This document shows positions 15,720 through 45,095 of a stretch of 64,000 bases of DNA, one piece after another. How positions within the stretch are numbered: the first letter of the stretch is position 1; each line of letters opens with the position of its first letter. Made by a program: the position numbers and the translations under genes. Below the pieces are notes generated by a model that worked only from the letters and a program-made list of their open reading frames with translations, was not told the DNA's origin and did not search any database. Source of the DNA: Caulobacteraceae bacterium (GTDB taxonomy: Bacteria > Pseudomonadota > Alphaproteobacteria > Caulobacterales > Caulobacteraceae); NCBI GenBank assembly GCA_003164925.1, contig PLRV01000025.1, positions 22,755 through 86,754 of the forward strand, written 5' to 3'.

Positions 15720-16718
15720 GTGCCCCACGACGCTCATCACGCCCTGTCGCCAGACGCCGCCGAGCCCGGCTCGACCGAGATCGGTCAGGCCACCGCCCTA
15801 ACGGCCCATGTCACCACCCTCTCGGTGGCCTGCGCGGCCGTGCTGATCGTGCTGAAGTTCGCCGCCTGGTGGTTCTCCGGCTCGGTGGCCATACTGGCGT
15901 CCCTGGCCGACTCGGGCCTGGATCTTCTGGCGGCCCTGCTCACCTTCGGCGCCGTGCGCTATGCGGCCGTTCCGCCGGATTCCGACCACCGCTACGGCCA
16001 CGGCAAAGCCGAGGCCTTCTCAAGCCTGATTCAATCGGGCTTGGTGTTCGCTTCGGCCGTCCTGATCGGCAAGGAAGCGGTGCAGCGCGTGCTGCATCCC
16101 CTCGCCCTGTCGCATCAGGGCGCCGCCATGACCGTGATGTTTGTCTCTCTGGCGCTGACCGGCCTGTTGGTCTGGTCCCAGACCCATCTGTTGAGCCAAA
16201 CCGCCTCGGTCGCCGTATCGGGAGACCGGACGCATTACATAGCGGACATTGCTTCCAACGTGGCCGCCCTGGCCGGCATCGCCGCTGCGACGCTCCTGAA
16301 TGCGCCCTGGATCGACGCCCTGGCCGGCCTTGCTGTGGCCGCGTGGCTGTTCGTCGGCGCCGTGGGGGTCTTCCGCAACAGCGCCGATCAGTTGCTGGAT
16401 CACGAACTGTCGACGCAGGCCCGCGATCGAATCCTTGCCCTGGTCTGCCAGGATCCGGCCATCATGCATGTCCACGAGCTGCGCACCCGCGCCTCGGGGC
16501 CCTATGTGCATATCCAGATGCACGCCGAATTGCCGCCTTCCATGACTTTGGAGCGGGCGCACCAGATCATCGTGGCCGCCGAGCGGCGCCTGCTGGAAAT
16601 TTATCCGGCGGCCGACATCCTGATCCATGCCGACCCCCACGGCCGAGCCGAACCGCATGGCGGGGCCTTCTCCGAGCATTATGAACACCTGGAAACGCCC
16701 GAAGAAACCACCGGGTAA
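15720..16718 (+). CDS. Cation diffusion facilitator (CDF) metal efflux protein
   Basis: Six TM segments with the CDF signature SVAILASLADSGLDLLA and HYIADIASN, plus a C-terminal cytoplasmic domain. The track start 15591 overlaps arsR. GTG 15720 is my guess for the start. Confidence 0.75.
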   Translation: MPHDAHHALSPDAAEPGSTEIGQATALTAHVTTLSVACAAVLIVLKFAAWWFSGSVAILASLADSGLDLLAALLTFGAVRYAAVPPDSDHRYGHGKAEAFSSLIQSGLVFASAVLIGKEAVQRVLHPLALSHQGAAMTVMFVSLALTGLLVWSQTHLLSQTASVAVSGDRTHYIADIASNVAALAGIAAATLLNAPWIDALAGLAVAAWLFVGAVGVFRNSADQLLDHELSTQARDRILALVCQDPAIMHVHELRTRASGPYVHIQMHAELPPSMTLERAHQIIVAAERRLLEIYPAADILIHADPHGRAEPHGGAFSEHYEHLETPEETTG

Positions 16719-22038: not shown

Positions 22039-23454
22039 ATGCAGCTTCATCAAAGACTGTCCCGCGGCCTGATTTCAAGCATTGCGGCGCGCGCCGTCGC
22101 CGTCGCGAGCCAGTTGGTCACCATTCCCCTCATGGCCAGGGCCTGGGGCGTGGATGTCTATGGCCAGTATCTGACCATGATCGCTGTGGCGTCCTATATC
22201 AACATCGCGACCTTGGGGGTTCATCAGGCTGCGATGGCGGAAATGGCCATCGCCTATGCCCGCAACGACAGGCAAGCCCACGGCAACGCCTTGCGCGGCC
22301 TGTCTCAATCCGTGCTCGCCGTTACCCTCCTTTGTGTCGTGGTGCAGATCGTTCTGGCCTACGCCCTGCCCACCAAGGCGCTGTTGCACCAGGGGACGGG
22401 CGGCGGCGTTCACTACGTCGCCTCTAACGCGATATTTCTCATCGGGATCCAGTACATCCTGCTGGCCAATATCGGCGTGGTCACCAACGCCATCGCAGCG
22501 CTGGGTCACTATGGCGAGGCCCAGGCCTTCGACACAATCCGCACCGCTATCGACTCCCTATGCTTGTGGAGTTGCGCCATCGCCCTCCACTTCGGCCCCG
22601 ACCTGACGGCGCTGGTCAGCGTGGCCCTCTCCACGCTGACCCTCGCCCTAGCCTGGCGGCGTTTCGCCAAAACTGCGCCGGAGGGGCTTCGCCTTTGGGG
22701 CGGCGTCGACTGGCGGGCTTTCGCCCGACTTTGGGAGCCGACCATGGGCAACTTCGCCGTCGGCACCATGTTCCAGACCGTGATGATCCAGGCGCCCCGC
22801 CTGATCCTCGCATCGGTGGCCGGCGGCAGCGCCGTGGCGTTGTTTTCCATCATCTGGGCGCTACTGGGCATGATCCGGCAGTCCTTCGAAGTGGTTATTC
22901 ATTCCATGACGGTGGAGTTCGCCTTTGCATTCGGCGCGGGCGACAAGACCCTGGCGACCGACCTGCTTGCCCTGGGCACGACGACCGCCGCGGGCTTCAC
23001 CGCGGCGGCTTGTGTTCCCGCCATCGCCCTGGGGCCTTGGATCATCAGCTTGGCGACGAAAGGGCAGATTCACGCCCAACACCTATTGATCGGCGTGCTG
23101 TGGAGCGGGCTGGCGATCTATTCCGCCTCAATTTGCTTCCTGGCTGCCTTGCAGTCGTCGAACCAGTCCTATCGCACCGTTTGGCCATTGTTCTGGCGAT
23201 CGGCGGCGTTCGTGGGTCTGGCCTATGCCATGACGCGCGTGTGGGGGATCTATGGGCTGGCAGCCTCGGTCGTCCTGTATCAGGGCAGCGTGGCGATCGT
23301 TCTGGTCACCGGCACGTGCCGCGCCTTTGGCATACGCATCCGCGACATCGTGAATGAGGCGCTGAGCTTGCGCTCGATCAAGCGCATGCTGGACATGGTC
23401 ATAAAGCCGTTACTCAAGCGCTGGTTGCCAAATCCAGTGCGCGGCTCGGCCTGA
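22039..23454 (+). CDS. MOP-superfamily polysaccharide flippase (Wzx-like)
   Basis: 471 aa with about 12-14 TM segments. The N-terminal pattern ARAVAVASQLVTIPLMARAWGVDVYGQY is typical of polysaccharide biosynthesis/flippase proteins. Confidence 0.65.
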   Translation: MQLHQRLSRGLISSIAARAVAVASQLVTIPLMARAWGVDVYGQYLTMIAVASYINIATLGVHQAAMAEMAIAYARNDRQAHGNALRGLSQSVLAVTLLCVVVQIVLAYALPTKALLHQGTGGGVHYVASNAIFLIGIQYILLANIGVVTNAIAALGHYGEAQAFDTIRTAIDSLCLWSCAIALHFGPDLTALVSVALSTLTLALAWRRFAKTAPEGLRLWGGVDWRAFARLWEPTMGNFAVGTMFQTVMIQAPRLILASVAGGSAVALFSIIWALLGMIRQSFEVVIHSMTVEFAFAFGAGDKTLATDLLALGTTTAAGFTAAACVPAIALGPWIISLATKGQIHAQHLLIGVLWSGLAIYSASICFLAALQSSNQSYRTVWPLFWRSAAFVGLAYAMTRVWGIYGLAASVVLYQGSVAIVLVTGTCRAFGIRIRDIVNEALSLRSIKRMLDMVIKPLLKRWLPNPVRGSA

Positions 23455-36818: not shown

Positions 36819-36915
36819 TGCCCTTATTGAACGCCGGGCAGCGGGAAAAGGCGAGGCGGCGGTGACCAGCCAGAGGGTGGAATTGCTCCCCAATGCCGAA
36901 CCCCTGAGTATCTGA

Positions 36916-38394
36916 TTAGCTCGTTCGCGTGCGTTCTAATTGGCGCGAGGCGAGCATACCGGCCGCAAGCCGGGAGTCGGCGTCGATGCGGCATGCGAGG
37001 CGCCGCAGCGCGGCCTGGGCTTCGGTGCAGACCGAGGCGGGCAGCGGGCTTGACCCGAGCCGCTTGATCAAGACCGCCAGGCGGCCAAGCCGCAGGCGCG
37101 TTGGATCCGGCCCGGAACGCACCTCGACTTCAAAATTGTGGCGCTTGACGAGGGCGCACAGGCGCCGTCCCAGTTCGGCCTGCGCGGTCGCGCCCCGCGC
37201 GATTTCGATCATATCGATGATGGCGTCCACATCTTCCAGCGCGCTGCGGCAGCAGGCCAGCCGTTGATCGACAAAAGCTTGGCTGGAGAGCCGAGCCCAG
37301 CAGGCGACTTCGGCGGCGGCCATAGCTTCCTGGTCGATCAGCGGCCCGCAACCGTCCAGTAGGGCGAATCCGGTTTGGACCCCGTTGATTTCCCCCATGG
37401 GATCGCCTGGCCACAGGCGCGATTGGCTGGCCAAAACGTCGACCACGCGGGCCGCAGCTGCGCGGCGTACGCCCACAAGGCGCGCTGAGCCGTGCAACTC
37501 CAGCGCCAGTCGCGCGCCCAGTCCATGCAGGCTTGTCAGCGAACGCCGCGCGTATGGAAGCTGCTTGGCCGCCTGCACGGCCGAGGGCGGCGCGACGATG
37601 CACAGCAAGGCCAGCGCCTGGGCGCCGGGGGCGAAGTGCGGTCCGAATATCTGCGCTAGATCGCCGTGGACGCCAAGGATCTCGGTCAAGGGCTCGCGCG
37701 CCAGCGAACGCTCAGCTGGCGCCCCCTCGCTGATCAGGTCGAGCAGGATCTCGACCTTGGCCGCCCAATCTGGCGCGGGCCTCAAAGCTGCCGCCAGGGT
37801 GACGCCGGAACGCAACAAGGGCTCGTCCGCGCCGTCTGCGTCCAGCCGGCACAGGCGGTCGATCGCGCGCCGCGCCAGACGGCCGAGCGCCTCGCGCGTG
37901 GACTGTTCCGCTCCACCCCGCTCAGCGCCGTCAAGCGCGGTTGCGGCTTGGACCGCAGCGCTGAGCTCAGCTGCGCAGGCCTCCAGTTGTTCGGCCAAAT
38001 CGGCGCGGTGCAGAAGCTCGAACGGCGTGACGCCATGGCGCGCTAGCCAGTCGCCCAGGACGCGGCCGATCACCGCCCTGGCCCTAGCGCTATACAGATC
38101 CTGGGGCCAGGAGCAGGCCGGTAGCGGACTTGCCTGAACCGATGGGCGTCGGGCTCCGGCTGGGACCTTCAGGCGCGTCAGCGGACCGCGTTCGAGCAAA
38201 ATGAGGCTGCGGAACAGGCCCGAGGCCGGATCGCGGGCCTCCTTGGTCACCCGCACCGCGCCGGCGCCAGAGGCAAGAGCCTCGTCGGCCGCCGTCAACA
38301 CAGCCGAACGACGCTCGCTGGCGAGCGTCAACGCCCATGCCGCCCGTCGATGGCGGCGCACGAATAGCTCGAAATGAATCAGGCCAAGTGGCAT
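36916..38394 (-). CDS. Hypothetical protein, 492 aa, Ala/Leu/Arg-rich, no TM segment or signal peptide
   Basis: A long ORF with an ATG start and no competing sense gene. GC-rich third positions fit a real gene. I do not recognise any family. Confidence 0.5.
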   Translation of the reverse strand: MPLGLIHFELFVRRHRRAAWALTLASERRSAVLTAADEALASGAGAVRVTKEARDPASGLFRSLILLERGPLTRLKVPAGARRPSVQASPLPACSWPQDLYSARARAVIGRVLGDWLARHGVTPFELLHRADLAEQLEACAAELSAAVQAATALDGAERGGAEQSTREALGRLARRAIDRLCRLDADGADEPLLRSGVTLAAALRPAPDWAAKVEILLDLISEGAPAERSLAREPLTEILGVHGDLAQIFGPHFAPGAQALALLCIVAPPSAVQAAKQLPYARRSLTSLHGLGARLALELHGSARLVGVRRAAAARVVDVLASQSRLWPGDPMGEINGVQTGFALLDGCGPLIDQEAMAAAEVACWARLSSQAFVDQRLACCRSALEDVDAIIDMIEIARGATAQAELGRRLCALVKRHNFEVEVRSGPDPTRLRLGRLAVLIKRLGSSPLPASVCTEAQAALRRLACRIDADSRLAAGMLASRQLERTRTS

Positions 38395-39141
38395 GGCGCA
38401 CGACTCCCACGTGAGAATTTCCGAAATGCAGGGCCGGAATTCTTCCGTGGACGCGCTGTGGCGACCTGACGCGAAAAGCTTGCGCCGCCCGCGTTTCAGC
38501 TCGGTTAGCGGATATGGTGAACGGCGCGCTAAGCTGCGGCCGTTTGTTTAAGCCCGCTTTGAGTCATGCAGCGCGGTAATGACCGATCGGCGCCAATTTC
38601 GGTCATTTGCATCCCGCTCGAAAAGCGACATCGCCGCCCTGCGGCACGAGTAAGGAACATCGGCGGCCTTCGGTCCATGCAGGGCCGCACCCTTGCGGAC
38701 CCGGGCACGAGCGCTGTCAAGGAGATTAGGTCAGCGGAGAGAATCGACCTGTCACGGACGATTGGGAGGTCCACTGTGGGGCCACAGTCATGGGATCTTC
38801 GGACTGGACGAGAACATCGCTGATCACTGCTGCGAGGCCTAGAAAGAATCGCCGATCAGCCTTAGCGCATCATGTCTATCGGACTGCGAGACTGGGAGCA
38901 TCGGTACTAATCAGCGCCGGTTGGTGCAAGATATTTTTGATCTACTGACGATGCAATCATCTGTTCCGGATATTATTTTCCGTAGACCATAACATACTCC
39001 ACAATATTCCGCGCTTATCATTCTTGATACAATTTTGGGCGGGGCGCTTGCTGAAAAATACTGGCTTGGTCTTTGCATCTCCTTTTGGCATCGATCGGCA
39101 ACCGCCGACGAAATTATGGCGCCTACATTGGAGATACCCCA

Positions 39142-40383
39142 ATGACTATAAGCAGCATCAACGGGGGGGGCAGTGAAAGCCTACTCCTTCAGCAATTAAT
39201 GCGGATGGAATCGTCTGCCGCCGCCAACACGAACGGCCAGGCAGATTCCTCCCAATCGGCACTATCTGCCTCAGGTACGCAAGGTCCGCCGTCCGCCCCG
39301 CCTCCTTGGCCGAGTAATAATGGATCAGATCTTTTCAGTTCCGATACATTGTCCAGCCTGAGCTCGACGCAAGCAAACTCCAGCGGAAGTTCGACATCAT
39401 CGTCGTCCGGATTAGACGCCATGGCATCGAGCTTGGCGTCCCAACTGATCAGCAATTATGGCTCGGCGGGGGATGGCGCCATCAGCCTGTCGGATATCGA
39501 GTCAGCGTTAGGCTCCAGCGCAAGTTCCTCCACATCGACGTCATCGGTCTCCACAGGCGCGGACACAAGCGGACTGGCGAGCGCATTTTCAGCTTTGGAC
39601 ACGAACGGCGACGGCAAGCTAAGCCAATCGGAGCTGGCAAGTGGTTTGGAGGCCATGTTCAGTCAAGCCGCGGCCTCCGGCGGGCCGCCTCCAGGTCCGC
39701 CGCCGGGCAACATCCCGGATGGCTCATCCACCACGTCTGCGACAGCAGCGGCCACCAGCACCGGAACAAGCGACGTATCAAGTTCGAGCACATCAAGCTC
39801 GACGGCCAGCACTTCGACTTCGACTACGGATCAGACTTCTGCGGCCCAGCAATTGGCGCAAGTCTTAGGGAGCCTTCTGACGCAGCTAGCCCAAGCTCAG
39901 TATGCGGACGTGAGCCAACTGACATCGGATGGCTCATCCACCACGACGGGAGGAGCCGCTAGCACTGGAACAAGCGACGCTTCAAGTTCGAGCGCATCAA
40001 ACTCCTCGGCCAGCGCTTCAAATTCCAGTACGAATCAGACTTCCGAGGCGCAGCAGTTGGCGCAAATCCTGGAGAGTTTTCTGGCGCAGCTGGCTCAGGC
40101 CCAGTATTCGAGCATCGGCCAATTGGCGTCGAATGACTCATCGACCAACACGGCCTCTTCGGCAGGCGCAGGCGCTAGCACCGGAATAAGCGGCGTTTCA
40201 AGTTCGAGCACATCAAGCTCAGCGGCCAGCGCTTCGAATTCGAGCACAGGGCAGACGTCTGAGACGCAGCAACTGGCGCAAGCCTTGCAGCACTTTCTGG
40301 CGCAGGCGGCTCAAGCCCAATATGCGAATGCGAGCCAATTAATGAACGTGAGTACTCAACAATCGACGACAGTCACGGCGTAG
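39142..40383 (+). CDS. Ser/Thr-rich EF-hand protein with three about 70-aa tandem repeats
   Basis: ATG 39142 is preceded by GGAGA (7-nt spacing). There is a canonical EF-hand loop DTNGDGKLSQSE (39598-39633) preceded by a degenerate one (GSAGDGAISLSD). Three repeats each combine an S/T-rich stretch with QQLAQxLxxFLAQxAQAQY. Confidence 0.7.
   Translation: MTISSINGGGSESLLLQQLMRMESSAAANTNGQADSSQSALSASGTQGPPSAPPPWPSNNGSDLFSSDTLSSLSSTQANSSGSSTSSSSGLDAMASSLASQLISNYGSAGDGAISLSDIESALGSSASSSTSTSSVSTGADTSGLASAFSALDTNGDGKLSQSELASGLEAMFSQAAASGGPPPGPPPGNIPDGSSTTSATAAATSTGTSDVSSSSTSSSTASTSTSTTDQTSAAQQLAQVLGSLLTQLAQAQYADVSQLTSDGSSTTTGGAASTGTSDASSSSASNSSASASNSSTNQTSEAQQLAQILESFLAQLAQAQYSSIGQLASNDSSTNTASSAGAGASTGISGVSSSSTSSSAASASNSSTGQTSETQQLAQALQHFLAQAAQAQYANASQLMNVSTQQSTTVTA
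39718..40350 (+). repeat. Coding tandem repeat, 3 units (210 + 207 + about 216 nt)
   Basis: Unit starts are at 39718, 39928 and 40135 (GATGGCTCATCCACCACG / GATGGCTCATCCACCACG / GACTCATCGACCAAC). Each unit ends in ...GCCCA(G/A)TATGCG... Confidence 0.85.
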
Positions 40384-40841
40384 CCCGCATTTTTCACCCT
40401 GTGGCTTGGGGCGGTGCTCTTGGGGTGCGGGCGGATTTTTGGAAGGTGTTGCGTTTGACGGCCACGGCGCAGGACCGGCCATTGAGGGCCTAGACTGCAG
40501 GGTCTAATTATCCTCGGTTGTTGATGACCCTGGCGGGGCGCGGGGTTCAGAGTTCCCTGGGGCGGGCTGAGGGGTGCTGTCGGCTTGATTCGCCAAAGTC
40601 GCAGACACCCCTCCTCTTTCCCATCTGGGCAGCCGCGTTCGGTGGCGGGGTTTGACCTCGCGCGGGAGAACCCCAAATCAGCCCCATCAGAACCGCGGCG
40701 GCGCAGGCCGGCAATGTCTGCCGAATAGGGGTTGGCGTCGTTCTGTGGGGGCCATTGGGGCCGTCTAAAGCCCCACAAGGGCGGCGGAGGGGCCGATTCT
40801 TACCGGAACTGAGGCAGGAATCCCTCCGCCTATCAGTCTTG

Positions 40842-42245
40842 TCACCCAACAGCTCGAGGCAGTACGACTTCAGCGATGAGGCCCCTGGCGCCGGACCGAA
40901 GCACGACGTCCCCGCCGTGACTTCGTGCGACGGCCCGGGCGATTGACAACCCCAATCCAACGCCGGTCGACTGCTCCTGCCGGGCTGCCTCGGTTCGGTA
41001 GAAGGGCGTGAACACCCTTTCCAACTCACGCTGGGGCAGGCCTGGTCCGTCATCGATGATCGTCACGACCGCCGCGCCGTCGCGCTCGGCGAAGAAAACC
41101 TCCACCCTTGCCCCGTACTTCACGGCATTGTCGATCAGGTTGGCGAAGAGACGCTGCAAGCCCACGGCGTCGCCGTCGACAACGAGGGGCGGCGCGAATG
41201 TCGCGCACACGTCCGCGCCGCCCGTCGCCGCCTCGTCCGCCGTGCTGATGACCAACGAAACCAGATCCAGCCGCTGGCGGACGCTGGGCGTCGCATGGTC
41301 TTGGTTGAACGCGATAACGCCATCGATCATGTGCTCCATCTGTCGCACATCGGAAAGGACAGCGGTCCGGAGCGCAGGCTCAACCTTCTCCAGCTTGAAC
41401 CGAATGCGGGTGAGCGGGGTGCGCAGATCGTGGGATATCGCGCCGATCATGCTGACGCGGTCCGCGACGTAGCGCTGCAAACGAGTCTGCATGGCGTTGA
41501 AGGCGCGCGCCGCCACGCCAATCTCCGCTGGACCTGATGGCGCTATCGGCGAGGCCTGGGGATCGCGCCCCAAGGTCTCCGCCGAGGCCGCGAATCCGCG
41601 CAGGGGGGCCGATATCCGCTGGGCAAACCAGAACCCGATCGGCCCCATGATCAGCAGGCCACCGCCGACCCAGACGATCGCACGACGGATCCATTCCAGA
41701 TCGGGCTCCGGTTCAACGATCGCCCACTTCTCATCGGGCCGTCGCCAAGCCGCGGCAAATTCGCCGCGCAAAGTCAACATCTCCAGGCCGGGAGGACGGA
41801 AAATCTCCAGGCCGGGAGGACGGAAATCCAGCGGGAGCTTGCCGGGCGGGCCGCCAAAGCCGGGACCTGCGCCCGGGAACCGAAGCGGCGGCCCCAGGTT
41901 CAGCATGAAGAAGGGGGGCGGCCCCCGACGAACCAGGCGAATTCTCTCTTCGGGTGATCCCATGACTTGCGCCAGGCGGCTCAGGCTGGGGTCTGTTTGC
42001 CGTCTCAATTCCGTCGGCAGGTTAGTGGCGACGCTGCGGCGCAGACGGCGCCCCTGGTCGCTCGCCAGGGATTCGCCCTTGAGAGCCGCGGCCACTTGCA
42101 CAAAACTGTAAATCGGCGGCGGCGAGGGCGGCAGGAGGAAGACCGCGAGGATCGTGACGCCCTGGGCGGTGATCACGGTGCTAAGCACCAGGATCATGAC
42201 CTGCGCCGTCAAGGACAACCGGATTTTGCCGCGATCCACGCTCAT
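40842..42245 (-). CDS. Two-component sensor histidine kinase (HAMP-HisKA-HATPase)
   Basis: Two TM segments. H-box SMIGAISHDLRTPLTRI, N-box LIDNAVKY, G-boxes DDGPGL and GVGLGLSI. The ATG overlaps the response regulator stop as ATGA. Confidence 0.85.
   Translation of the reverse strand: MSVDRGKIRLSLTAQVMILVLSTVITAQGVTILAVFLLPPSPPPIYSFVQVAAALKGESLASDQGRRLRRSVATNLPTELRRQTDPSLSRLAQVMGSPEERIRLVRRGPPPFFMLNLGPPLRFPGAGPGFGGPPGKLPLDFRPPGLEIFRPPGLEMLTLRGEFAAAWRRPDEKWAIVEPEPDLEWIRRAIVWVGGGLLIMGPIGFWFAQRISAPLRGFAASAETLGRDPQASPIAPSGPAEIGVAARAFNAMQTRLQRYVADRVSMIGAISHDLRTPLTRIRFKLEKVEPALRTAVLSDVRQMEHMIDGVIAFNQDHATPSVRQRLDLVSLVISTADEAATGGADVCATFAPPLVVDGDAVGLQRLFANLIDNAVKYGARVEVFFAERDGAAVVTIIDDGPGLPQRELERVFTPFYRTEAARQEQSTGVGLGLSIARAVARSHGGDVVLRSGARGLIAEVVLPRAVG
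41779..41826 (-). repeat. Perfect 24-bp tandem duplication inside the kinase sensor domain
   Basis: ATCTCCAGGCCGGGAGGACGGAAA occurs twice on the plus strand. It encodes FRPPGLEI/FRPPGLEM in frame. Confidence 0.95.
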
Positions 42246-42952
42246 CCGCGGTCAACCTCGCAGTCGATGATGTAACCCACCCCGCGTTGGGTGCGGATCA
42301 GGTTTTCCCCGCCGTGACTCTGAAGCTTGCGCCGCAGCCGGCTGACCAGCAGATCGATGGCCCGACTGTCGGCCCCGTAATCCGTGCGGCTGGGGCCGAG
42401 CAGCTCTTCACGCGTCATAACCTCCAGGGGCTGAAGAAGGAGCGCTCCCAGGAGCGAAGATTCTCCGGCGGTCAGCACAATCAAGGTGCCACTGGGCGCC
42501 TTGAGTTCGCGCCGGGCGGAATCATAGCTGAATCCTTCAAACCGAAAGACCGAGGAGCGGCCGCCAGCCTGGGATCCAAGATCGCGCCGGCGCAGGACGG
42601 CCCGGGTGCGCGCCAGGAGTTCGCGAGGACTGAATGGCTTGGCGAGGTAATCGTCAGCTCCCAGTTCTAGGCCGAGCACGCGGTCGACCTCCTCACCCGC
42701 GGCGCTGACCATGATTACGGCCGTCCCCGCGTTGTGAACAACGCGGCGGCAGACGGACAAGCCGCCCTCCCCGGGCAGCCGCAAGTCCAAGATAATGAGA
42801 TCGACGGGACGGGCCGCCAGCGCCCGGTCCATCGCCTTGGCGTCGCCGGCGGCCGAAACGTCGAATTCGTACTCGTTCAAATAGCGGCTGATCTGCTCGC
42901 GAAGCTCCGGATCGTCGTCCACGATCAGAATGCGTTTGTTGGCGGAGGCCAT
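42242..42952 (-). CDS. OmpR/PhoB-family response regulator
   Basis: Receiver domain KRILIVDDDPELRE...DLIILDLRLPG, and a winged-helix output ending in RTQRGVGYI. ATG at 42952. Confidence 0.9.
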   Translation of the reverse strand: MASANKRILIVDDDPELREQISRYLNEYEFDVSAAGDAKAMDRALAARPVDLIILDLRLPGEGGLSVCRRVVHNAGTAVIMVSAAGEEVDRVLGLELGADDYLAKPFSPRELLARTRAVLRRRDLGSQAGGRSSVFRFEGFSYDSARRELKAPSGTLIVLTAGESSLLGALLLQPLEVMTREELLGPSRTDYGADSRAIDLLVSRLRRKLQSHGGENLIRTQRGVGYIIDCEVDRG

Positions 42953-43484
42953 GTGAGTACCGGTTTGGAAAAGATATCGCGTTACGCGCCTTCTAGTCCT
43001 TTTTGTGGCCACGGAACCCAGACCGGCCAAAATTCCGCATTTCCACGGGCGGTCTTGTCGTTCATGTCAGCTTGACGTCACCAGCACTGTAAGATTAACA
43101 GTTTGACGTATAAATACCAATATCCCGTCGTTTTTTAGGCGAACGCCGCCATATACAAAGTATTGAAAACTTCTAAAAATGGGGGAACACACTACTTTTC
43201 GGCCCCTAGTTTCCGTGTCTCATCTCAGGGGTACAGTCCAAAACGGAAAACGGTCAGTGAAAGTGGTATGTATTCCTATGTTTCATGACCTGCCCCGCGA
43301 GCCGTTGTAGCGCTGAGCTAGGGGCTTGGGCAATTACACGTGGAGCGTTCCGCAATCCCGAAGTTGAGGTGGTACGACCTCGTTCAGCAAGGGTCAGCGA
43401 CGTCGCGCCACGCGGGGTGCTGCGCTCGCGCCCTACCGTCAACCGTCATGCGTTTGGCCTGATCGGCCGTTCTCAAATCGGCGC

Positions 43485-44627
43485 TCAGGATCCAACCGGA
43501 ATGTCACGGCCGCGATCTTCCAGGCCCAGAGCCTTGGCGGTGGCGTGATCGTATGCGCCGCGGGTCAGGCCCTTATCCCGCTGGAAACGAACCATGGCCA
43601 GCTGCACGGCGGCGGTGAAGCGGCCGCTCAGCGGTCCGTCATAGTAGCCGTGCCTCTTCAGGGCTTCCTGCAGGGCCAGGGTGCGATAATCGCCGCCCCG
43701 GGCCAATGCGCCCTCGCGGTAGGTCTCACGCGTGGTGGTGACGACAGAGGATTGCGTGCTCACCACCGGCGCCGAGCGGATCGCCGGAGCGTCGTTCGCG
43801 CCCAGACGCACCGGCGAGACATTGTCCGCTTCCGGCTGGCAGTCGACTTCCTTCCAATCGAAATGGGTCGCCGAGATCAGGCGCTGCTTGGTCACCGTCT
43901 TGTAGGTGGCTGGGATCACCACTGAAACGGTTTGTTCAGGGGTGACCAGCTTGGTGATGCGCACCGTCTTGTAGGTGGCCGGAATCTGGTGCTCGATCAC
44001 TCGCCCCGGTTGGTCGATGACCTGCCGCGTCACTGTGGTGGTGATGGCCGGCTCGAGGACATCGCGGGTGGTTTCGGCCTGACGCACGACGTTGCGCGTC
44101 ACTGTGCGGTATTCCGCCGGCACCTGCACAAGACAGATCACTTCTCCCGTCGCCAGCACCTTGGTCGTGCCCGGCATGATGATGTCGCTGGGCGAACGCT
44201 GGCCGCGCTTCCATTCGGTGTGCGCTTCACGCACCAGAACCTGCTCAGATTCCTCGGCGTAGACCGCTGGAACATCAACCTTGCGGGTCGTCTCGGGCTT
44301 GACGACGATCGTCTCGGTGATGGTCTTGTAGGTCGCGGGGATGGTCTCGTATTCGACGCGCGCCTCGGTCGCGACCACCTGCCGGATGTCGTCGGCATAG
44401 ACAGCCGGCACCACATGCAGATCTGTGTGTTCGGCGGTGTCGACGACCTTTTCGGTGTAGGTCTCGTACTGTTCCGGCACCAGCAGCTTGCCGTAGCAGT
44501 GTCCGGCCACGGCGTTAGGCGGAAGATCGCTCGGAGCAATGCCTACATTCGGGGGCTGCGCGCCTGCGGCGCCGGCGGCCAACAGGATCAAGGCGCCCGA
44601 AGCGACCCCACTCAGATGAACACGCAT
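43485..44627 (-). CDS. Exported repeat protein with a C-terminal PG_binding_1 peptidoglycan-binding domain
   Basis: Signal peptide MRVHLSGVASGALILLAAGAAGAQ. About 8 copies of a (V/I)PAxY(K/E/R)T(V/I)T-type module. C-terminal LALQEALKRHGYYDGPLSGRFTAAVQLAMVRFQRDKGL. ATG 44627 with a GAGGG SD. Confidence 0.8.
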   Translation of the reverse strand: MRVHLSGVASGALILLAAGAAGAQPPNVGIAPSDLPPNAVAGHCYGKLLVPEQYETYTEKVVDTAEHTDLHVVPAVYADDIRQVVATEARVEYETIPATYKTITETIVVKPETTRKVDVPAVYAEESEQVLVREAHTEWKRGQRSPSDIIMPGTTKVLATGEVICLVQVPAEYRTVTRNVVRQAETTRDVLEPAITTTVTRQVIDQPGRVIEHQIPATYKTVRITKLVTPEQTVSVVIPATYKTVTKQRLISATHFDWKEVDCQPEADNVSPVRLGANDAPAIRSAPVVSTQSSVVTTTRETYREGALARGGDYRTLALQEALKRHGYYDGPLSGRFTAAVQLAMVRFQRDKGLTRGAYDHATAKALGLEDRGRDIPVGS

Positions 44628-45095
44628 CTCACCCTCGTTTCGAGACACAGCTGCCTACCGGAAATTCAGCGGCCTGCGCAGAAGTTAAAATTTATTAATA
44701 GTGGTTAAGCTTCGAATGCAAAGGCATTTTCCAATGGATTCAATTCTTAGGGGAAAACTGGCATTGGCAGACCTAGTTGGCTGAATAGGAAATGGGACGC
44801 GGCGACCTTCCCAACACAAGCCACCAAAGCGGGCGCCGTGCTGATCTGAGGCCGGCCCAGGGCGGACGCCGCTGCAACCGTGGTCAAAGCCTTTTTCAGA
44901 GAACCTATTGCATCTTCCAAGGTCTGAAACCGCTGCGGCGCGGCTTCATCAGGATGCAGAACCAGCACGCCCGATGGGAGGCCAGGAGCCGACACTGGGA
45001 CCGATCCGGGAAGGCGATACTCGCTTTGACACCGAGTGGCGAGTTCGACTCCCCAACAGGGGTTGAGTGAAACGCTCGCGATCGGGGTGGTCGAC

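Follow-up and report, generated by a model that had tools for sequence, protein, structure and literature searches.

In a 64,000-nucleotide stretch of DNA from a Caulobacteraceae bacterium (GenBank assembly GCA_003164925.1, contig PLRV01000025.1, forward-strand positions 22,755 to 86,754; hereafter the window, numbered from its first letter), an open reading frame at 39142-40383 on the plus strand translates without stops into a 413-aa EF-hand protein (P0001), delineated by its reading frame, Pfam matches, composition and a search for relatives. The gene adjoins an OmpR-type two-component system, and we consider it somewhat more probable than the contrary that its product would serve as a Ca2+-dependent third component, accessory or output, of this module. 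On comparative grounds the conserved linkage argues strongly for joint action of the EF-hand protein and the two-component system, since it occurs in two gene orders, withstands kinase divergence down to 42% identity, involves sister kinase clades with two kinds of EF-hand protein, and recurs in other bacterial classes. An initial annotation, prepared from the sequence alone, had treated the two-component system as incidental; since the linkage persists from genus to genus and extends outside the Caulobacteraceae, it is instead the strongest functional clue available. Few sensors have been defined in bacterial Ca2+ signalling, and a module of kinase, regulator and EF-hand protein is a testable candidate; its interest rests on the conserved module and not on the protein alone. 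The module appears undescribed, and no published description of a two-component link to XopAW-like EF-hand genes was found in the literature.

Linkage of the EF-hand gene to a two-component system

Both genes of the two-component system lie on the minus strand and were identified by Pfam, NCBIfam and orthologues, Pfam thereby confirming the two-component neighbour reported in the initial annotation. The EnvZ-like histidine kinase (HK; 40842..42245) consists of a first transmembrane segment, a periplasmic domain, a second transmembrane segment, and HAMP, HisKA and HATPase domains. Its sensor is a Pro-rich, basic periplasmic domain of ~150 aa (aa 38-186; pI 10.3, 17% Pro), in which a duplicated peptide, FRPPGLEI/FRPPGLEM, is encoded at 41779-41826; among orthologues the length of the domain ranges from ~125 to 185 aa. 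The gene of the OmpR-family response regulator (RR; 42242..43030, with a likely start at ATG 42952) overlaps the kinase gene by 4 nt.

The two closest relatives of the EF-hand gene on long contigs likewise have a HAMP kinase of ~465 aa and an OmpR regulator as neighbours. Over the full length these kinases share 62% and 43% identity with the window kinase, and the one regulator compared directly is 53% identical. When the 17-kb regions around 20 family members from genomes were examined, an orthologous RR/HK pair adjoined the EF-hand gene in five genomes (G090, G048, G077, G042 and G123) and lay 7 kb off in a sixth (G007); counted as loci, the pair is found beside the EF-hand gene in L004, L005, L023, L025, L026, L036 and L037, and 7 kb away in L039. 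Identities to the window genes in these loci are 42-62% for the kinase (full length) and 47-69% for the regulator. Two layouts occur: EF-hand gene, regulator and kinase in one direction (L004, L023, L025), and an EF-hand gene convergent with the regulator-kinase pair (the window, L005, L026, L036, L037).

A second sample, meant to avoid the bias of choosing loci by their EF-hand genes, comprised 28 loci, 27 of them chosen by similarity to the kinase sensor and one being a paralogue on contig C52 of the window's own genome, detected through its resemblance to the kinase. The sensor domain alone matches 81 of 151 Caulobacteraceae genomes. In 15 of the 28 loci an EF-hand gene was located within one gene of the kinase; by comparison, the EF-loop pattern occurs in four ORFs of the whole genome from which the window derives, which corresponds to an expectation of ~0.007 per ±2 kb. 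Fourteen of the 15 carry an EF-hand gene of ~250-270 aa with a signal peptide or lipoprotein signal directly 3' of the kinase, and the remaining one (G108) has a XopAW-like gene (P0023) just upstream. Other neighbours on the kinase side encode an LTXXQ (CpxP/ZraP-family) periplasmic protein, lipoproteins (including DUF3500), an outer-membrane beta-barrel and very large exported proteins; the first two kinds at times take the partner's place in the clade to which the window kinase belongs. Among the very large proteins are two signal-peptide ORFs of 1190 and 1068 aa (L075:744-4316 and L077:2221-5427), which stand just upstream of the module, have no Pfam matches and end in ...F, as outer-membrane or autotransporter proteins do; the product of the L075 ORF has a net charge of approximately -174.

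The linkage extends beyond the Caulobacteraceae. Outside this family, 8 of 11 signal-less XopAW-like genes abut an OmpR regulator and/or a histidine kinase, among them all four of the examined members that score above the NCBIfam cut-off; P0010 and P0020 stand divergently beside an OmpR regulator and a HAMP kinase of 339-355 aa. An adjacent regulator is present in another three signal-less relatives; three others have none within 5 kb. In 401 sampled Pseudomonadota genomes, three full-length XopAW genes exceed the cut-off singly and all are arranged in the order regulator, kinase, XopAW; two more genomes attain it only if matches in one frame are added together. The XopAW-linked kinases are 38% identical to the window kinase in the catalytic part, and the regulators 41%.

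Kinase clades and their EF-hand partners

A maximum-likelihood tree of 37 kinases resolved two clades, each with support of 100/100. Clade A (16 rows) has the arrangement regulator, kinase, signal-peptide EF-hand protein in 14 of its rows, the exceptions being the second paralogue of the same genome, on C52, and one case at a contig end. Clade B (21 rows) contains all ten loci with signal-less XopAW-like partners. Partner labels cluster on the kinase tree, with none of 200 shuffles scoring as low. The sensor domains are alike in both clades (~125-185 aa, Pro 10-21%, mostly of positive net charge), and the ratio of sensor to kinase identity is 0.42 and 0.50 in the two. An exported partner in one clade and a signal-less one in its sister offer a natural contrast for asking where and how the partner acts.

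The clade A arrangement represents an apparently uncharacterised operon type in Caulobacteraceae genomes (L085-L092, L094-L098, L078). Its EF-hand gene begins a few bases after the kinase stop and encodes ~250-270 aa with the motif ...FISPAGEPFR...PYPV..WF..AD.DHDG.... These proteins share with the window protein the possession of EF-hand pairs and partner kinases of the same family, but differ in having Sec or lipoprotein signals, in being globular and in always being encoded downstream of the kinase. Two such genes are present in the genome of the window (C16:86610-87368 and C100 ~16300-16650), both unlinked to the second kinase paralogue (C52:58210-60293).

Adjacency could alternatively reflect co-transfer on a small island, the product being a cytoplasmic Ca2+ buffer or a disordered protein functionally independent of the two-component system. 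It is true that the protein lacks a signal peptide, and its C-terminus (...VTA / ...LAA) resembles a ClpXP-type (ssrA-like) tail. Base composition points in the same direction: GC content at third codon positions (GC3) is 0.63 in the EF-hand gene, against 0.74-0.87 in its neighbours, which bears out the lower GC remarked on in the initial annotation, and against 0.76-0.89 in its orthologues, so that the low value is a trait of the window copy and not of the family. Across 36900-44650 the two-component system is lowered as well (0.74-0.78, against 0.87 for a PLD gene representing the local norm). Together with the normal orthologues and the co-directional order of EF-hand gene, regulator and kinase in G048, this suggests a recent joint acquisition, with inversion, in this lineage. 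However, the linkage persists at 42% kinase identity, in at least four genera and two gene orders, recurs in other classes with a different, related two-component system, and has a counterpart in a sister kinase clade linked to a different kind of EF-hand protein. Hitch-hiking does not predict such a pattern, and we regard this explanation as unlikely.

Relationship to XopAW

The sole family match with a significant E-value (3e-10) in NCBIfam was XopAW (NF041410), whose cut-off is 120 bits; the protein scored 40.3 bits, with an alignment restricted to model positions 101-231. A search of 5.8 billion proteins returned just 19 relatives. Within the Caulobacteraceae, which include the nearest named relatives (Phenylobacterium and Caulobacteraceae metagenome-assembled genomes), matches were obtained in 36 of 151 genomes, 14 of 27 genera and 4 of 9 genomes of the same genus.

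All relatives follow a common plan. It begins with M-x-(I/T)-S, followed by a short LLxQL helix, a polar linker, GPPPGPPP and the motif S-x-Q-F-S-x-D-T-L-S-x-L-L; next come either one EF-hand pair or two, a further poly-Pro hinge and an S/T tract, and then either a helix (...LLxQ[FYW]AQAQY...) or a His-run, with a tail ending in [VIL][AT]A. The relatives grade into XopAW: P0020 scores 103.8 bits end to end, P0010 reaches 144.5 bits, which is above the cut-off, and the genomic XopAW members L102-L104 score 233-238 bits. The last three start with M-I-S-G-V-S-S and proceed through EF-hand pairs, a poly-Pro stretch, an S-rich stretch and the helix YQKLVANLLKQYQ to a tail ...NIAA. The initial annotation did not recognise a family; the NCBIfam match, the grading relatives and the common architecture identify it as the XopAW-like superfamily. 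At 40.3 bits the protein falls outside NF041410 by the NCBI threshold, yet its domain plan matches, and from sequence comparison we classify it as a divergent member of the superfamily.

The first 97 aa gave three matches only in 1.8 billion representative proteins, and with a profile of the N-terminal module the genome of the window was the only match among 401 Alphaproteobacteria, no other of the 397 high-quality genomes in the sample carrying the module. Two variants within the family deserve mention. In one subgroup (L027-L035, L038, L042, P0011-P0013) the C-terminal helix is replaced by 5-8 His and a Thr/Ala-rich tail; this subgroup does not adjoin the two-component system, and the His-run may be a second metal site. 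The protein called for the metagenomic orthologue P0003 (L004:10400-11000) loses its frame downstream of the poly-Pro hinge; reading on in the +1 frame recovers the S/T tract along with the helix QQLALALQGLLMQFAQAQY and a tail ...QQTVVTS, indicating an assembly error or a pseudogene.

The window protein and XopAW thus have in common a signal-less start M-x-I-S-(G/S), one or more EF-hand pairs, a poly-Pro hinge, a Ser-rich tract, a C-terminal amphipathic helix ending ...QY..., a short tail ending [VIL][AT]A, and genes that adjoin an OmpR regulator and a HAMP kinase. They differ in several respects: the window protein has one canonical EF-hand loop against three to six in XopAW, and carries an additional 80-aa N-terminal module and a triplicated C-terminal module; its partner kinase has a 150-aa periplasmic domain, whereas the XopAW-linked kinases are of 339-355 aa with a short N-terminal region; and its Caulobacteraceae host genome is without an injectisome.

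Since XopAW is the best named match, one could suppose that the window protein is a type III effector injected into a eukaryotic host. Its N-terminus is rich in Ser, has Ile as residue 3 and contains no acidic residue among the first 11, which also fits the signal rules of plant-pathogen effectors. On the other side stand the score, far under the cut-off, and the genome, whose only FHIPEP gene is flagellar and which contains no injectisome. Moreover, xopAW itself occurs in Xanthomonas strains that have no type III secretion system (T3SS; PMC11032200) and lies outside HrpG regulation (PMC11316434); in X. arboricola it is nearly universal (PMC13375143). An effector role of this kind is, in our judgement, extremely improbable.

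Features of the predicted protein

The start codon at 39142 is preceded by a GGAGA ribosome site 8 nt 5' of the ATG, and orthologues begin with the equivalent Met in the same TTGGAGA context; as these fit, a longer, TTG-initiated reading from 39073 is unneeded. Ser accounts for 27.4% and Thr for 10.7% of residues (38.0% together, in agreement with the more than 35% of 413 aa estimated by eye in the initial annotation), with one Lys, one Arg, one His and no Cys, a pI of 4.05 and a net charge of approximately -22. Direct reading of the first 40 aa revealed neither a hydrophobic h-region nor a twin-arginine motif, so that the claimed lack of a Sec or Tat signal holds for this segment.

The N-terminal module (aa 1-80; 39142..39381, plus strand), defined by alignment, contains M-x-I-S-S, then LLLQQLM as a short helix, a polar linker, a stretch rich in Pro, and the motif SDLFSSDTLSSL. 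It is kept in the 20 aligned relatives, with M1, F65, L73 and Q77 invariant. An EF-hand pair domain follows (aa 89-178; 39406..39675, plus strand; Pfam, AlphaFold2 and Foldseek), and then the PPPGPPPG hinge, read in the sequence at 39685..39708 (plus strand), where the initial annotation had placed it, and corresponding to GPPPGPPP in relatives.

An EF-hand was taken to be a loop of 12 residues whose oxygen ligands stand at positions 1, 3, 5, 9 and 12, with Gly at 6, and whose score exceeds the gathering cut-off. The canonical loop DTNGDGKLSQSE (aa 153-164; 39598-39633) is of this type, and Pfam places one EF-hand at aa 145-171 (EF-hand_6, PF13405, 27.3 vs 25; EF-hand_5, PF13202, 26.7 vs 25.9), at the coordinates previously proposed. 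The partner loop, G-S-A-G-D-G-A-I-S-L-S-D (aa 107-118; 39460-39495), is degenerate, as had been claimed, because the carboxylates at positions 1 and 3 are missing. In the AlphaFold2 model, built with 11 sequences, aa 89-178 form paired EF-hands (pLDDT 85-94; short beta bridges link residues 113-115 and 159-161), a short N-terminal helix occupies 11-28 (pLDDT ~70), long helices occupy 229-262, 297-334 and 370-406, and the remainder is disordered. In a Foldseek search of the PDB, EF-hand lobes were the only matches, CRACR2a among them (TM-score on target 0.74, E 0.03). The product is accordingly predicted, from sequence and models, to be an acidic, largely disordered Ca2+-binding protein with one functional EF-hand in a two-EF-hand fold, and as a predicted protein the Ca-binding, signal-less EF-hand protein of the initial annotation is supported. 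What that annotation observed was confirmed overall; its interpretation is partly supported.

The C-terminal part is built from three copies of a module recognised by repeat analysis, all on the plus strand: copy 1 (39718..39927), in which the amphipathic helix QQLAQVLGSLLTQLAQAQY comes after an S/T-rich stretch; copy 2 (39928..40131); and copy 3 (40132..40380), which alone retains the family's terminal tail ...STQQSTTVTA. In the protein the units span aa 193-262, 263-330 and 331-413, and each contains, as had been described, an S/T-rich stretch and the helix QQLAQxLxxFLAQxAQAQY. Seed extension at the DNA level gave a repeat unit of 204 nt (~204-216 nt) at 39740, 39944 and 40160, with 77% and 70% identity, and a 20-nt repeat head at 39716, 39926 (100%) and 40130 (75%). 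The three tandem units reported earlier are therefore real; their spacing, given as 210/207, was measured at 210 and 204. Tandem Repeats Finder reports no array in the gene because the copies are too diverged. Three modules are present in the window protein only, and every relative seen, including that of the same-genus genome G048 (L025), has a single one ending ...[VIL][AT]A; the anticipated variability in repeat number is thus borne out, and by sequence comparison the triplication is lineage-specific. Between the copies, 30 helix codons show 10 synonymous and 10 non-synonymous changes, a pattern that fits purifying selection on a working protein after an old duplication. A single-chain three-helix bundle formed by the triplicated helices was considered and found no support, as AlphaFold2 on aa 225-413 alone gave a pTM of 0.29 and a mean pLDDT of 51.

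Such a composition invites the interpretation put forward initially, namely a secreted structural or matrix protein, perhaps O-glycosylated on its Ser/Thr tracts and exported non-classically, with the two-component system at most regulating it. The high Ser and Thr content, the absence of Cys, the strong acidity and the long disordered tracts all agree with it; the conserved extreme N- and C-termini resemble export signals, and the genome encodes a flagellar export apparatus. Yet no adhesin, matrix or polysaccharide genes are linked in any of more than 40 loci, no glycosyltransferase is linked, the flagellar gate is the only known export route in the genome, and the C-terminal repeats are without confident tertiary packing. 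We saw nothing that speaks directly for a structural role or for O-glycosylation, and rate a matrix role as improbable, to about the same degree as co-transfer of a buffer.

Export machinery and compartment

The genome of the window (3.4 Mb, 99.4% complete) has one FHIPEP gene, whose neighbour is an FlbD-like sigma-54 activator; the genome also carries flagellin-type genes, three of them full and two weak. On account of the single copy, the FlbD-like neighbour and the flagellins we consider FHIPEP to be the flagellar gate and the genome to be without an injectisome; should the EF-hand protein be exported, it would have no type III machine at its disposal other than the flagellar gate. No PrtD/HlyB-type ABC exporter was detected in the genome (best TIGR01842 score 214 bits vs 510) and no HlyD-type adaptor (TIGR01843, 62 bits vs 209), and none of the three best-scoring ABC exporters has an adaptor gene alongside.

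A type I substrate was also considered, which would bear an uncleaved C-terminal signal (amphipathic helix and hydroxylated tail) and fold, RTX-like, on extracellular Ca2+. The C-terminal helix and the Ser/Thr-rich tail ending in small non-polar residues are family-wide and resemble such a signal, a class with no defining motif, and the protein is acidic, Cys-free and predicted to bind Ca2+. However, RTX repeats are absent, the exporter and adaptor are lacking from this nearly complete genome, and among relatives the only linked ABC/MFP pair is a MacB-type set (FtsX, ABC_tran and MFP) beside P0018 (L009/L010). Without an injectisome and type I components both the effector and the type I readings fail in this genome, and we hold the latter to be very unlikely. 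The P0018 gene, divergent from the MacB-type transporter, is a single case and a possible export lead.

Calsymin of Rhizobium etli is a useful comparison; it has three domains with two EF-hands each, and its gene is linked to the repressor gene casR and is not known to be linked to a two-component system. By description it differs from the window protein in these three double-EF-hand domains, compared with a single EF-hand pair. Calsymin (CasA) is like it in being an alphaproteobacterial EF-hand protein; it is secreted, with reported export without N-terminal cleavage (PMC10574481). Its gene was not seen in one 50-kb stretch of plasmid p42f (270-320 kb), and tblastn on the plasmids gave nothing relevant.

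Non-classical secretion of the window protein is possible, and Sec-independent exit from the cytoplasm and action on the cytoplasmic side appear to us about equally probable. Four points favour the envelope: sister-clade partners are exported, an LTXXQ protein occupies the same slot, the periplasmic sensor domain is unchanged, and XopAW is T3SS-competent. The cytoplasm is favoured by the universal lack of signal peptides, the absence of a type I system and an injectisome, the short pre-HAMP region of the XopAW-linked kinases and the ssrA-like C-terminus.

Proposed role of the EF-hand protein

For the third-component role that we favour, the most economical mechanism, by analogy, would be one like that of ZraP or CpxP, with Ca2+ as the metal. 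In the ZraP-ZraSR and CpxP-CpxAR systems a periplasmic accessory protein is encoded beside its two-component system, induced by it and feeds back on it. By the same scheme, expression of the EF-hand gene would be set by the OmpR-type regulator, and its product may contact the kinase physically and either feed back on it or supply it with a Ca2+ signal. As in those systems, a small accessory-type gene stands directly beside an envelope two-component system, in divergent, convergent or co-directional orientation, and does so across many genomes; metal binding, predicted for the window protein, is a further likeness to ZraP, and at the orthologous locus L079 the same slot is occupied by an LTXXQ (CpxP/ZraP-family) gene. 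In contrast to ZraP and CpxP, the window protein has no signal peptide and no LTXXQ match in Pfam, and would bind Ca2+ through an EF-hand; regulation and feedback are here extrapolated from the analogues. Equating the system with UzcRS was also considered and set aside, since the literature gave no basis for it and the likeness is one of analogy only (YjbI).

Several observations weigh against the third-component role. Such a two-component system is missing from the surroundings of approximately half of the family's Caulobacteraceae members, predominantly those carrying a His-run, and 11 of the 21 kinases in the clade linked to XopAW-like genes have no EF-hand neighbour. The EF-hand protein is without a signal peptide, yet the sensor domain of the kinase is periplasmic, and the window copy retains a single canonical Ca2+ loop. 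No motif was found in common between the promoter of the EF-hand gene and the regulator's own upstream region, and the conserved upstream site is a palindrome, while OmpR-family sites are usually direct repeats.

A broader proposal, which we put forward tentatively and think less likely to hold than not by a clear measure, is that EnvZ/OmpR-type kinases and EF-hand proteins would constitute a widespread, undescribed three-component Ca2+-sensing module in Pseudomonadota, with XopAW primarily a two-component accessory. The partner would be Sec-exported in one clade, and signal-less and disordered in the sister clade and in true XopAW; XopAW-like proteins might reach the envelope by an unrecognised route (e.g. 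the flagellar gate) or act on the kinase from inside, and T3SS translocation in Xanthomonas could be a by-product of an export-competent N-terminus. XopAW, an entry of the Xanthomonas effector catalogue, merits a fresh view, its family being generally wired to its own two-component system.

Upstream region and flanking gene

Upstream of the EF-hand gene, a 492-aa orphan (36916-38394, minus strand) has no Pfam or NCBIfam match and no counterpart in ~25 related loci, and was for the latter reason placed outside the conserved module. The gap between the two genes (38395..39141, plus strand) contains no credible ORF and no Rfam match, the scan of the flanking gaps giving nothing credible, and was designated a non-coding control region. 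The initial annotation had described ~750 nt of AT-rich sequence; the gap itself is real, and the AT-richness is confined to its last ~300 nt, GC dropping to 0.49 at 38800-39199.

Two conserved elements were recognised in this region, both on the plus strand. A candidate operator, the palindrome TTATC-N6-GATAC (39015..39030), was singled out by its conserved spacing to a TTGCA box, which it precedes by 41-43 nt in the five loci closest to one another, namely the window (41 nt), L004, L023, L024 and L025. The pattern has only four sites in the 3.4-Mb genome, and a whole-genome search based on it produced no regulon. The box itself (39073-39077) forms part of TGGC-N7-TTGCA (39062..39077). A sigma-54 promoter was rejected here: GG at the sigma-54 spacing is present in the window copy only, and because the relatives are without it we interpret the TTGCA box as a promoter element of another kind; in 8 of the 9 related loci it lies 58-91 nt 5' of the start codon.

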